Source of the DNA: a phage
Length of the DNA: 64,000 nucleotides
Sequence record: PX930851.1
Reading direction: 5' to 3' (one strand)
A model generated the notes under the pieces. It did no database searches, had not been told where the DNA came from, and saw only the letters and a program-made list of their open reading frames with translations. Of this stretch, positions 30,423 through 39,774 are shown one piece after another; positions within the stretch are counted from its first letter, which is position 1, and every line of letters begins with the position of its first letter. The translations under genes were made by a program, and so were the position numbers.

Positions 30423-30896
30423 TTATTTGAACGATTTAACGTACTGAATAGAACCTTTACTATTCACAAAGGCAATTTTACCATTTTTATTATACATGGT
30501 AGCAGTACGCTGATAACCATAGGTTTGTTTACCAGATTGATAACCAACTAATGCAAAATTATCTTCACCCATTTTATTCTGTTTAGCGCGAATGCGTTCA
30601 TGACCATGTGCCATAAGAACCTTAGCATCACCAGTTGCAATGGATCGACGAGTTTTTTCATCTTCAACTGCATTAACAAAGTCGTCAAATGAATCAAATT
30701 TAGCATGAGATTTATTATACAATTTTCCATCTACTGCATAATTATATCCCTGTACATCCATCTCAACTTCTGTACCATCATCCAATACAGCAGTAATTTT
30801 TTGACCTTTTTTAAATTTCAAAAGATCAGTAAAAGATTCAGCAATAATTTGAGAATTAATAGCTGCTTCAGTGATAAATTCTTGATATGTTTTCAT
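30423..30896 (-). CDS. internal-protein-like capsid-packaged protein, 157 aa
   Basis: N-terminus MKTYQEFITE matches T4 internal-protein capsid-targeting sequence, with I-x-E prohead protease site. Confidence 0.6.
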   Translation of the reverse strand: MKTYQEFITEAAINSQIIAESFTDLLKFKKGQKITAVLDDGTEVEMDVQGYNYAVDGKLYNKSHAKFDSFDDFVNAVEDEKTRRSIATGDAKVLMAHGHERIRAKQNKMGEDNFALVGYQSGKQTYGYQRTATMYNKNGKIAFVNSKGSIQYVKSFK

Positions 30897-30905
30897 GGGT
30901 TTCCT

Positions 30906-31322
30906 TTAAATGTAAATATTTTTACCGTAATACTTATACCAATGTGGTTTCATTAAAATTTTTTCATCAAGTCGTTGTTGACTCAATTTAATAGCTGATT
31001 TGCATGGATTATAATCATTTTTCCATTCTATTGGAATATCGCTGATGTCAGGAACTTCAGTATCTTTTATACTGAACCCGCGTTTTAAGCATTCCGTTAT
31101 AATGTCTAATTGACGCTTTCGCAAAAATTCTAACTTATCGTAAAAGAACGTAACATGACCAGAACCTAAAATAAACTCGGAAGATATTTTAAAATCTTTA
31201 ACGCGCTTACCGTTTGCCACATGCTTACGAACTATACCAAAAACACGCGGCAATTCACGGTATTCTGCGATTAAATGTTGATCAGCAAGTTCAGATACTA
31301 AAGTCAAATTAATACGAGTCAT
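30906..31322 (-). CDS. denV: endonuclease V (pyrimidine dimer DNA glycosylase)
   Basis: 138 aa; [17 protein letters not shown]... as recalled for T4 endo V; own early promoter. Confidence 0.9.
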
Positions 31323-31347
31323 TTTATCCCTCCAAGTAACTGTGAAT

Positions 31348-31377
31348 ATACTATCACAATTCTAGGAGAAAGTAAAC
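31348..31377 (-). promoter_or_regulatory. phage early promoter upstream of denV
   Basis: -35 GTTTAC, 18-nt spacer, TTGTGATAGTAT. Confidence 0.55.
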
Positions 31378-31381
31378 AACT

Positions 31382-31876
31382 TTATAGATTTTTATACGCG
31401 TCCCAAGTGCCAGTTCTAAACGTAGCGATAACTCGTTTTGCGCGGTTAGGTGTTTGATTATACCATCTACTTTTAGCTAAGTTAATTGCTGCTTCATCCC
31501 AGCGTTTTTGTTGAAGCATACGTAAAGAATTAGTAAATCCTGCCACGCCGGTTTCTCCCATTTGGAAAACCATATTAATCAATGCACAGCGACGAACAGC
31601 ATCAAGAGAATCATAAACTGGTTTTAATTTAGCATTTCTCAAAATTCCACGAACAGCAGCATCAACATCCTGATTAAAGAGTTTTTCAGCCTCATCTTTT
31701 GTAATTACACCATTGCAATTACGCCCAATAGCTTTATCTAATTCAGATTTAGCAACATTAATTGATGGACTTTTAGTAAGCAAATGACCAATGCCAATAG
31801 TGTAATAGCCTTCTGTGTCTTTATAGATTTTAAGTCTAAGACCTTCATCTATACGTAACATTTCAAATATATTCAT
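31382..31876 (-). CDS. e: lysozyme (endolysin)
   Basis: 164 aa; [33 protein letters not shown] (T4 lysozyme); AGGAGG RBS; late promoter upstream. Confidence 0.95.
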
Positions 31877-31902
31877 AATACCTCCTAAGTGTTTATAGAA
31901 GG

Positions 31903-31910
31903 TATTTATA
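31903..31910 (-). promoter_or_regulatory. late promoter (TATAAATA) upstream of lysozyme e
   Basis: exact TATAAATA on minus strand ~27 nt upstream of e ATG. Confidence 0.7.
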
Positions 31911-31913
31911 AAA

Positions 31914-32369
31914 TTAAAAGAGGTTGTTCATTATTCGGTAAAGTGAAGGACCCATCACATATTGCCACTGAGTACGAGGAATAAGAGCAAAAGCATCCAT
32001 CTCTGGAATCATAACGCCATCTTTATTTTCAAAATAAGACTCGCAATGGCAATTTCTGAACATCTCATGCTCTACTGGAATCGTATAATAAAATAACTGT
32101 AAGTCTTTATTACTAGAATATTTAAATATACCTAGGTCTTCTAGAAGGTCTGGATTATAATTGCTAAAACCGGTCTCTTCTAAGCATTCTCTTTTTGCAG
32201 CTTCCAGTGCATTCAAATCAGAACTTTCTACACGCCCCTTTGGAATATCCCAGCGATGTGCCATCATTCCAGGCTTACGAGAACCAGTAACCCGACCCAT
32301 AAATAAATCTTTATCTTCTGTCATAAAGATAATACCAGCTGATAGTGTTTTCATTTTAATTTCCTGCAT
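31914..32369 (-). CDS. nudE: Nudix hydrolase
   Basis: Nudix box [24 protein letters not shown]. Confidence 0.8.
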
Positions 32370-37983: not shown

Positions 37984-38052
37984 ATTATTAACAAAGGCTC
38001 TCAAACAAGAACCCTTGATGATAGAGGGTATTAATCAGTGCGGTATGAGTTA

Positions 38053-38077
38053 ATAATAACAAATAATTCTTAAAGCA
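38053..38077 (-). promoter_or_regulatory. candidate MotA-dependent middle promoter upstream of tRNA cluster
   Basis: AATTTGCTTTA MotA box, 12-nt spacer, -10 TATTAT. Confidence 0.5.
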
Positions 38078-38585
38078 AATTAAACATTTTAACGGTCGGC
38101 AAAACAATTTCTTCTTCTATATAAGAGTATTTAACACTCTCAACTACACGCAAAAAATCATAATCATAATACTCAGAAGCATTACCTAAAATATTAATAA
38201 GTCCTTCAAGCACTTTATTACCATTCACAAAGAATAAGTCAAATACGCGTTCTTCGTCTTCTTCGGATTTATTACCAAGGTCAACTTCTATATCAAAGAC
38301 CTTTTTAATGAATTCTGGATAAAGTTGTTCTGAGAACAGTCCTTCAACCAAGTATTCATAAATAAAAAGCGATTGCTCGCTGAACAAGCCATTACCACAA
38401 TAACGTTCAGCTTTAGTACTAGAATGTCTACTTTTAAACTTCTTTAAAAGATATTGAAATTGTAAGATTTCATGCTCTTCTACGCCAAACAGTGTTTTAG
38501 TTTTATAGTTGTCACCATCATTTTCCCAGGTAGTGACATCAATTACGTAACCCTGTGGAATTGTAGTACCTAAACAAATATTCAT
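38070..38585 (-). CDS. hypothetical protein, 171 aa
   Basis: ORF track. Confidence 0.55.
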   Translation of the reverse strand: MNICLGTTIPQGYVIDVTTWENDGDNYKTKTLFGVEEHEILQFQYLLKKFKSRHSSTKAERYCGNGLFSEQSLFIYEYLVEGLFSEQLYPEFIKKVFDIEVDLGNKSEEDEERVFDLFFVNGNKVLEGLINILGNASEYYDYDFLRVVESVKYSYIEEEIVLPTVKMFNLL

Positions 38586-38875
38586 TTGCTCACCATATTA
38601 ATGTAAGTATATTCAATACATTCAAGACCCAAAGGATTCTTGAAAATATCATATTCAAGAGGACCTTTTTCCGTTTCAATAAAGAAATCAAAATTTACTG
38701 TATTAAATTTACGGTCTTCCTTCACTAATTTAACCTGAGAAGATGAACGGTCAATGTAAACCTTTTCAACTTCAAAACATGTTAAAATGCCATAATCATC
38801 AATCAAGGCTTTAGCTGCTTCTTGATCATATTTATATCCATTTTCAATGGACGATACTTTAGCATAAAGAATCAT
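38582..38875 (-). CDS. hypothetical protein, 97 aa
   Basis: ORF track. Confidence 0.5.
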   Translation of the reverse strand: MILYAKVSSIENGYKYDQEAAKALIDDYGILTCFEVEKVYIDRSSSQVKLVKEDRKFNTVNFDFFIETEKGPLEYDIFKNPLGLECIEYTYINMVSK

Positions 38876-38878
38876 TAT

Positions 38879-39268
38879 TTACCCTTCATCAACAATAGTA
38901 TGAGTGTGGGCATTTACGATTTGCCACCAGTCAAAGCGATTAGAACCATACATTGGTTTGTTCTCATTTTCTTTGATAATGTCACGGAGTTCATCTTCGG
39001 TAGCGGCTTTCGCGATTAAATCAGCATATCCACCGCGAGGATAATAATTATCACCTGCAAAAAGTAAAAAGTTTGGTTTAATATTATTAAACTCTTCAAG
39101 AGTAATAACTTTTCCTGTCGGTTGAACAATCTCTACATATTTATATCCTAATTTTTGAGCAGCATCTACTGCTTCAAGCAGGGTATCATGAGCCCATCCA
39201 ATTTGGCAATCTGGCTTTTCAGATGGATTAGCCTGATAATCCGCGTACACTTTATACATTCTATTCAC
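38879..39268 (-). CDS. hypothetical protein, 129 aa
   Basis: ORF track. Confidence 0.55.
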   Translation of the reverse strand: MNRMYKVYADYQANPSEKPDCQIGWAHDTLLEAVDAAQKLGYKYVEIVQPTGKVITLEEFNNIKPNFLLFAGDNYYPRGGYADLIAKAATEDELRDIIKENENKPMYGSNRFDWWQIVNAHTHTIVDEG

Positions 39269-39446
39269 CTTTAGAAATTTTATCCATAACGATAGCGATT
39301 AAACCAATTAAAAATGCTACTACAAGCGAAAACACATTTTCTGCTGTAGTTAATAATCCGCATATAAATCCAACAAACATTGAAAAACTAAAAGCAGAAG
39401 CAGAAATTGCAATAGCAACATTTCGAATTAATTCACAGCGTTTCAT
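39261..39446 (-). CDS. small membrane protein, 61 aa
   Basis: start moved to ATG 39446 (GAGGAG RBS) below early promoter; one TM helix. Confidence 0.45.
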   Translation of the reverse strand: MKRCELIRNVAIAISASAFSFSMFVGFICGLLTTAENVFSLVVAFLIGLIAIVMDKISKGE

Positions 39447-39474
39447 TTTATTCTCCTCAGTAGTTGATAGGGTA

Positions 39475-39504
39475 ATAGTATCACAACTAAAACCCCGTGT
39501 AAAC
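39475..39504 (-). promoter_or_regulatory. phage early promoter
   Basis: -35 GTTTAC, 18-nt spacer, TTGTGATACTAT. Confidence 0.6.
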
Positions 39505-39516
39505 AACTTTGTGAAA

Positions 39517-39774
39517 TTATTTTAAATCTTCTAATCGTTTCTTCATCTTAGAACCATTTTTAGCGATTTCTCCTGCGTCAGAGCATAATGCTAAAAGTGC
39601 TTTAACTTTAGTTTGGTCTCCTTTAAAAGACGAAGGATCGACTGCAGCAGCAAGTTCTTTAATACGAGAGAAAAGACGCTCAGCTTCAGCTAAAGCCATT
39701 CCAAGCTTTACTTCCATACCATGAGAAGATTCAGTGATAATAGTTTCTGTAGCAAACTCTTTATAAGTTTTCAT
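39517..39774 (-). CDS. internal-protein-like capsid-packaged protein, 85 aa (ipI-like position)
   Basis: N-terminus MKTYKEFATETIITE; early promoter 39806-39835. Confidence 0.6.
   Translation of the reverse strand: MKTYKEFATETIITESSHGMEVKLGMALAEAERLFSRIKELAAAVDPSSFKGDQTKVKALLALCSDAGEIAKNGSKMKKRLEDLK

Follow-up and report, generated by a model that had tools for sequence, protein, structure and literature searches.

The internal proteins (IPs) of phage T4 and its relatives are small basic proteins with an N-terminal capsid-targeting sequence (CTS), which docks them on the prohead's scaffolding core. This leader is cleaved off by gp21, the prohead protease, after the glutamate of an (L/I)-x-E motif; the mature protein is retained in the head until it is injected together with the DNA. 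Here, we analyzed a phage DNA sequence of 64,000 nucleotides (nt) (PX930851.1, one strand; this whole stretch is called the window below), in which three genes with leaders of this type lie in the region of interest from 30,423 to 39,774. Two of them, Ip4 and Ip5, are already named and annotated, and nothing is new for these two. The third, which we call family A, is probably an unrecognized internal protein encoded at a third polymorphic locus. For this explanation of the three genes as a whole, we estimate a probability of about 0.7.

In T4, the 10 N-terminal residues of IPIII are enough for packaging, with targeting mediated mainly by residues 4 and 7 and processing by residues 8 and 10 (Mullaney and Black 1996, as summarized in PMC9026906). 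The CTS alone packages foreign proteins, and the propeptides of the T4 IPs are 10 to 19 residues long (PMC9026906). T4 Ip1, Ip2 and Ip3 are inhibitors of GmrSD type IV restriction enzymes, each acting on a different one (Silas et al. 2025, PMC12373910); IPIII is required on ECOR17 and functions without its CTS. The published polymorphic IP loci are the ipI locus and the ipII/ipIII locus (PMC2839356, PMC12373910). According to one paper, T-even genomes carry no IP genes at other places, and the field describes two Ip loci, the wording "the two Ip loci" being found also in Silas et al. 2025 (PMC12373910). The other described system of relevance is the PeSL (promoter-early stem-loop) mobile regulatory cassette of phages RB49 and phi1, together with PeSL-like elements found at the IP loci (Arbiol et al. 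2010, PMC2839356), in which one gene lies between direct stem-loop repeats.

The window is from a Tequatrovirus; over the 10-kb region, it shares 99.2% identity with Enterobacteria phages RB51 and RB68 and 98% with Sa45lw and Sf23 (Tequatrovirus). All genes of the region are on the minus strand, and their order follows T4 (vs.8, denV, e, nudE, e.2 to e.8, the stable RNAs and the tRNA cluster, tRNA.2-4, 57B and 57A). The layout of the window itself, with Ip4 on the vs.8 side of denV, recurs in at least 256 phage records. When the whole window was scanned in six frames, the analysis found a CTS-like N terminus in exactly three open reading frames (ORFs), which begin with MKTYQEFITE (Ip4), MKSYTQFLNE (family A) and MKTYKEFATE (Ip5) and all have Y4 and F7. 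Under a composition null, 2e-4 strict leader matches were expected among 605 ATG-initiated frames, and a chance origin of the motif was rejected. When the leaders were removed, the bodies had no BLAST similarity to one another or to T4 IPI, IPII or IPIII (all E > 0.1). The three ORFs, their CTS-type leaders and their mutually unrelated bodies, all claimed in an earlier note on this DNA, were thus confirmed; the ORFs are on the minus strand, at the coordinates given there. The predicted mature forms (7.5 to 16.5 kDa, pI 9.1 to 9.6) are similarly basic to mature T4 IPI*, IPII* and IPIII* (pI 9.0 to 9.65). Since about 23% of the small proteins in the window also have a pI of at least 9, basicity argues only weakly for an internal protein.

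The family A leader, MKSYTQFLNE, is followed by AVLNE and then A, and the predicted mature protein has a mass of about 15.5 to 16 kDa and a pI of 9.5. As in T4 IPII and IPIII, there are Y4, F7, L or I at position 8, and E10 followed by Ala, in a protein that would be small and basic after processing. A second L-N-E is found at residues 13 to 15, because the L-N-E-A cleavage motif is present twice (residues 8 to 11 and 13 to 16), through a 15-nt tandem duplication within the leader; the shorter orthologues in the alignment have one copy. The predicted mature N terminus is either A11 (AVLNEASSTEIQAVAK) or A16 (ASSTEIQAVAK). Family A differs from T4 IPII and IPIII in this duplicated motif, in its location, and in having a late-promoter motif instead of an early-type promoter with a stem-loop. 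In RB51, the gene is labeled [quoted passage not shown] The gene was found in 512 phage records, and all of those among the matches listed give it as a "hypothetical protein."

The family A cassette lies between the terminator of the tRNA/rnaC operon and e.8, outside both IP loci of the literature, whereas the ipI slot is taken by Ip5, and the place next to denV in the e-to-vs.8 interval by Ip4. Placement at two loci is a feature of the published description and not of the mechanism. The gene is bracketed by two hairpin copies (35880-35915 and 36439-36474), which are identical at 33 of 36 positions. Each copy has a GAAA loop on a 10-bp stem, together with a T-run; the folding free energies are -18.5 and -21.6 kcal/mol (z of -3.9 and -3.5). 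The three differences of copy 2 from copy 1 all fall in the 5' arm, and pairing is kept by G.U pairs in the minus-strand RNA, a pattern compatible with selection for a hairpin in the transcript as well as with a crossover inside it.

T4 has a single hairpin about 50 nt downstream of rnaC. When positions 35880-36438 (559 nt) were removed, the window became colinear with T4 without any gap. In T4, T2 and T6, the site is precisely empty and has one hairpin, which bears out the idea in the earlier note that the hairpins around the middle gene are cassette boundaries. What that note overlooked is the main point: the middle gene is at a third locus, which is itself polymorphic. When 817 records were queried with the empty site, the spans found were empty, +559, +513, +535 and +686-688 nt. 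In the genomes sampled, four allele states were present: the empty site (T4, T2, T6, RB9 and PST), A only (the window, RB51, SP21535, KMB38 and QL01), a second family, B, only (RB69, with the gene frameshifted), and A and B in tandem (JLBYU22, pSs-1 and one IMG/VR contig). The module boundaries all lie immediately after the hairpin T-run: the junction into the right flank reads ...GGGGCTTTTT then GGTATCTAGG, and the T-run is followed by GGTATAAATA at the junction into cassette A and by AGTTTGAATC at the junction into cassette B. A search of IMG/VR with the hairpin sequence returned just two exact matches.

We propose that family A is a self-contained cassette, in which the gene is preceded by a late promoter and followed by a second copy of the operon terminator hairpin, and that recombination at the hairpin and its T-run would generate the natural alleles (empty, A, B, and A plus B). 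On the other hand, the duplicated hairpins may be mere terminators, with exchange at the third locus occurring by homologous recombination in the long flanks (rnaC and the sequence upstream of e.8). These flanks are 95 to 99% identical among Tequatroviruses, which is ample for the efficient recombination of T4. However, every junction of the hairpin with the right flank, with cassette A or with cassette B falls exactly at the end of the T-run, the occupied site differs from the empty site by exactly one repeat unit plus unique DNA (559 nt), and the differences between the copies are confined to one arm, as expected from a crossover within the hairpin. In addition, the analogous PeSL elements excise as circles in RB49 (PMC2839356). 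We regard exchange through the flanks alone as rather unlikely.

Like the PeSL cassettes, the family A cassette has one gene between direct stem-loop repeats and brings its own putative promoter and terminator, and relatives have one copy of the element at the empty site. It differs in that the repeat is the GC-rich intrinsic terminator of the tRNA operon and the putative late promoter, TATAAATA, is present once, whereas in the PeSL elements an early sigma-70-like promoter lies in the repeat. While PeSL circles have been described, the family A cassette is known here from sequence alone.

The motif TATAAATA is found after the hairpin and before the CTS gene also in SP21535, JLBYU22, pSs-1, QL01, KEN39 and fHe-Yen9-01, in surroundings that have otherwise diverged, and another copy in the window precedes the late gene e at 31903-31910. 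The order of tRNA cluster, GC hairpin with T-run, TATAAATA and CTS gene(s) is shared by Tequatro-, Mosig-, Dhaka-, Teguna- and Jiaodavirus, including the Klebsiella Jiaodavirus KEN39 and the Yersinia Tegunavirus fHe-Yen9-01. Because this arrangement spans at least five genera, the empty state of T4, T2 and T6 is most simply explained by deletion between the hairpin copies. These empty sites probably explain why classical work saw two IP loci only.

Homologues of family A in the same five genera keep the leader. It is MKTYNEFLTE, fully canonical, in QL01 (Dhakavirus), MKSYAEFLTE in KMB38 (Mosigvirus), MLEYSEFLKE in fHe-Yen9-01 (Tegunavirus), MKFKEFLAE in KP01 and KEN39 (Jiaodavirus), and MLKFNEFLAE in the metagenomic variant P0016, with Y or F at position 4 and F at position 7. 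The bodies, in contrast, fall to 40 to 55% identity or have the C-terminal half replaced. In KP01 and fHe-Yen9-01, the N-domain alone is conserved with family A (55 to 58% identity) and the C-terminal half differs.

Family B, which occupies the same slot, has 187 residues and begins with MKTYAEFLTE followed by A. It occurs in 165 records, all "hypothetical" among the matches listed. The gene is intact in RB14, JLBYU22 and pSs-1, and is frameshifted in RB69 into RB69ORF149c and RB69ORF148c (L004:1498-2060). PHROGs v4 places A (E 3e-60), B (E 1e-53) and the Klebsiella KP01-type protein (E 2e-59) in phrog_2280, a family of "unknown function." Since hhalign aligns only the leaders of A and B, with a BLAST E value of about 1, this grouping may rest on the leader and the overall architecture. 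A gene of fHe-Yen9-01 (L018:2422-2991) is colinear with B (24% identity, E 4e-4) and directly precedes the A-type gene.

Other genes were also seen at or near this slot. In fHe-Yen9-01 (KY593455), a 52-residue ORF (L018:1700-1858) between tRNA-Trp and tRNA-Gly has the canonical leader MKTYIEFINE followed by IIVKSGDKF..., and may encode a very small internal protein from within the tRNA cluster. A conserved membrane protein of about 185 residues (MKLLKYLS...) is encoded in the same post-tRNA slot of QL01 (L007:2551-3105) and Cronobacter phage Pet-CM3-4 (L011:2234-2791). In Pet-CM3-4, its gene comes after a hairpin plus CATAAATA; in QL01, it comes after family A and is followed by a repeat of the upstream hairpin.

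Among phage proteins, injected internal proteins are the earliest to encounter host immunity. Reasoning by analogy from T4 Ip1, Ip2 and Ip3, we expect that the mature proteins most likely would neutralize first-line host defenses, and we consider Ip4, Ip5, A and B candidate injected anti-defense proteins, with less confidence than we place in family A as a head protein. The bodies of Ip4, Ip5 and family A had no BLAST similarity to IPI*, Ip2 or Ip3, and no PDB sequence match (all three proteins) or fold match (family A) was found; as Ip1, Ip2 and Ip3 are unrelated to each other, no such likeness is expected. A further proposal, tentative and given somewhat less than even odds, is that A and B mark a third ancestral Tevenvirinae IP locus by the tRNA operon, driven by a late promoter and shuffled at terminator hairpins, whose products act on defenses other than the targets of Ip1, Ip2 and Ip3. 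If a third locus is real, the catalogue of candidate injected anti-defense proteins would grow, with two widespread families added (512 and 165 GenBank phage records), and the annotation of hundreds of therapeutic-phage genomes would be corrected. T2, T4 and T6, which do not have these genes, would allow natural gain-of-function tests, and the locus would illustrate cleanly how cassettes are shuffled at a terminator hairpin.

The three proteins could instead be packaged as structural or DNA-condensing components of the core, which neutralize charge or aid packaging and ejection, and not as specific anti-defense effectors. All mature forms are small and basic, and the family A fold, a generic helical bundle with a coiled hairpin, gave no informative match. 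When ip4 to ip10 were assayed against GmrSD variants, no reproducible inhibition was observed (Silas et al. 2025, PMC12373910), so that even Ip4 and Ip5 have no known target. However, the basicity is shared with nearly a quarter of the small window proteins, as noted above, and A, B, Ip4 and Ip5 are each missing from many viable relatives (T4, T2 and T6 are without A and B). This absence, together with the mutually unrelated bodies, fits dispensable, host-specific functions, and all three T4 Ips of known function are specific GmrSD inhibitors. We regard a purely structural role as improbable.

In addition to the negative GmrSD assays, several points weigh against family A as an internal protein with an anti-defense role. 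Its leader is identical to that of T4 IPIII at just 5 of 10 residues. The motif TATAAATA is not enriched in the window (12 occurrences, 10.4 expected), and its reading as a promoter relies on its conserved position, because the count is not above chance. Nothing informative was obtained from Pfam, where no family matched, from PDB sequence searches, or from the AlphaFold2 model and its Foldseek comparison with PDB and BFVD. The model (mean predicted local distance difference test score of 75) consists of an N-domain of three helices and a helical hairpin, joined by a disordered Lys/Pro-rich linker. What was observed consists of sequence features, the anatomy of the loci compared across relatives and allele structures, from which we infer packaging, processing, injection, late transcription of family A and an anti-defense role. 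In the virion analysis of phage fD1 (phiD1) using liquid chromatography coupled to tandem mass spectrometry, Gp140, with 98.7% identity to A, and Gp129 (Ip4) appear as "phage particle associated" (PMC8309999 Table S3), in a table that reports no N-terminal peptides. The same preparation contained denV, lysozyme, NudE, e.5, e.6, a SegB-like protein and 672 host proteins. Because the preparation is nonspecific, the detection shows expression and copurification only and not specific packaging. The fPS-65/fPS-90 paper contains no virion proteome.

Neither A nor B was called Ip in any annotation, library or paper searched (Repoila 1994 and Comeau 2007 were outside the search), and neither appears in the supplementary text of Silas et al. 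(PMC12373910), as far as that text was available. The name RB32ORF132c was not mentioned in the papers searched. The 2007 study by Comeau is reportedly cited for more than 30 IP variants, and an earlier recognition of A or B is possible.

The reading that family A is an ordinary late non-virion protein, whose likeness to the CTS arose by recombination with ip 5' ends or by convergence, could draw on the 5 of 10 leader residues, on the lack of a curated library that calls family A a head protein and on a sole proteomic detection in a preparation rich in nonstructural proteins, but it is the least probable of the alternatives, since positions 4, 7, 8 and 10 persist in five genera in which the bodies diverge or swap, the QL01 leader is fully canonical, a CTS by itself suffices to package foreign proteins (PMC9026906), and the upstream late-promoter motif fits the timing of prohead assembly. 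We regard family A as probably a CTS-targeted head protein. A phmmer search of family A against 1.84 billion representatives matched about 8 phage clusters. Three large multi-repeat matches were rejected as spurious, being Ig-like beta proteins that share an "AAGxYSYK" string.

Table 1. Positions of the three CTS-bearing genes and of the associated elements in the window
Feature	Position	Strand	Basis or remark
Family A gene (RB32ORF132c), 157 amino acids, unannotated candidate internal protein	35920..36393	-	ORF
15-nt tandem duplication inside the family A leader	36347..36372	-	Direct repeat GCTTCATTTAA twice, 15-nt spacing
Hairpin copy 2, stem 35889-35912; putative terminator of gene A	35880..35915	-	Repeat and fold
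TATAAATA, T4 late-promoter consensus, 41 nt upstream of the family A ATG, directly after hairpin copy 1	36434..36441	-	Motif match
Hairpin copy 1, stem 36448-36471; intrinsic terminator ending the tRNA/rnaD/rnaC operon	36439..36474	-	Identical to the single copy of T4
rnaC homologue (136/139 identical to T4)	36522..36660	-	Left border of third locus
rnaD homologue	36667..36783	-	Left border of third locus
Ip4 gene, 157 amino acids	30423..30896	-	ORF; RB51 annotation Ip4
Ip4 5' untranslated region, Shine-Dalgarno sequence and codons of the leader; homology to the T4 ipII/ipIII 5' ends	30865..30924	-	DNA comparison
e-denV intergenic segment with one early-promoter-like element and a stem-loop; T4 has ipIII and ipII here	31323..31381	-	Matches the T4 e/ipIII and ipII/denV junctions
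Ip5 gene, 85 amino acids, T4 ipI slot	39517..39774	-	ORF; RB51 annotation Ip5
Downstream 69-nt copy: last Ip5 codons, stop, early-promoter-like TTTACA-17-TACTAT, stem-loop	39464..39532	-	Promoter-like sites 39503-39475
Upstream 69-nt copy: end of 57B and early-promoter-like element that would drive Ip5	39795..39863	-	Promoter-like site 39834-39806

The Ip4 protein is assigned to phrog_3155, "internal virion protein" (E 1e-101), and to Pfam DUF7412; PDB sequence searches with Ip4 and Ip5 returned nothing significant. Its leader, MKTYQEFITE followed by A, has Y4, F7, I8 and E10 with I-T-E at residues 8 to 10, and the predicted mature protein, beginning at A11 (AAINSQIIAESFTDLLK), has a mass of 16.5 kDa and a pI of 9.1. 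The leader shares 9 of 10 residues and the cleavage register with T4 IPII and IPIII (MKTYQEFIAE followed by A). The likeness extends to the DNA, as the segment with the 5' untranslated region and leader codons is 91.7% identical over 60 nt to T4 ipII and 89% identical over 47 nt to ipIII, whereas the bodies are unrelated.

Comparison with the T4 annotation agreed with the earlier note that the order around these genes is unlike that of T4. In the window, Ip4 is placed beyond denV, between denV and vs.8, whereas ipII and ipIII are between e and denV in T4; in T2, the order is e-Ip4-vs.8 without denV. The sequence downstream of the Ip4 stop codon is the one that follows the denV stop in T4 (87.6% over 732 nt). 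On this sequence comparison, the shift of Ip4, which that note had called a relocation, is a permutation of cassettes (ip genes and denV) within the known hyperplastic e-to-vs.8 interval. The denV gene (30906-31322) is 78.6% identical to T4 denV over 294 nt, with a 3' part that is not alignable by blastn, while its flanks are 87 to 94% identical. Being more diverged than its flanks, denV itself may have been exchanged as a cassette.

The GC-rich segment directly after the Ip4 stop (30330-30422; gggaacaacctggacctcatgattc..gggattcccgccaacc...) is conserved in T4 and T2 and had no Rfam match. Its T4 homologue, located after denV, has been annotated as belonging to the 5' part of vs.8; the shorter vs.8 of RB51 excludes it. 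In the IMG/VR contig IMGVR_UViG_2938479101_000005 (L013:5773-6090), a CTS-bearing gene (MKTYQEFIAESAAGQRVEGGYIW..., 105 amino acids) lies directly upstream of the Ip4 gene, so the Ip4 site can hold two ip genes in tandem. The automatic annotation of the T2 record AP018813 is unreliable, with Ip4 labeled "valyl tRNA synthetase modifier" and e.8 labeled "nuclease." That of the T6 record AP018814 is likewise unreliable; there, e adjoins regB, without vs.3-vs.8, denV or ip genes between.

The Ip5 gene lies between tRNA.4 and 57B, exactly the position of T4 ipI, and is thus not relocated. The protein is assigned to phrog_3499, "internal head protein" (E 4e-50). Its leader is MKTYKEFATETIITE followed by S, with the nonconsensus A-T-E at residues 8 to 10 and the consensus I-T-E at residues 13 to 15. 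Since the Ip5 N termini of T2 and T6 (MKTFKEFATKTTITE followed by SSHG) have Lys at position 10 yet conserve I-T-E at 13 to 15, the propeptide is probably 15 residues long, inside the 10-to-19 range of the T4 IPs. The predicted mature protein would begin at S16 (SSHGMEVK), with a mass of 7.5 kDa and a pI of 9.2. The cleavage register, which the earlier note put near residue 10 for all three proteins, is thus corrected for Ip5.

The Ip5 gene is flanked by a 69-nt direct repeat with 84% identity between the copies, and the same flanks with early-promoter and stem-loop repeats surround T4 ipI. This is exactly the PeSL-like arrangement that Arbiol et al. (PMC2839356) attributed to the IP loci, the early sigma-70-like promoter (TTTACA-17-TACTAT) being present twice at the Ip5 flanks and not at family A. 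Both Ip5 and T4 IPI (leader MKTFKEFTSTTTPVSTITE followed by A, 19 residues) have leaders of more than 10 residues that end in I-T-E, at residue 15 in Ip5 and at residue 19 in IPI. They differ in that the mature parts have no similarity, and IPI* inhibits GmrSD, whereas the target of Ip5 is not known.

The tRNA cluster of the window (37152-37983) has 10 tRNAs, including tRNA-Pro, and is without the segB homing-endonuclease gene, which is intact in T4 and present as a truncated SegB-like gene in RB51. Between tRNA-Gln and tRNA.2, an ORF of 171 amino acids (38070-38585) is shared with Sa45lw, T2 and KMB38 and is not in T4 or RB51; this patchy distribution among the relatives points to another presence/absence cassette.

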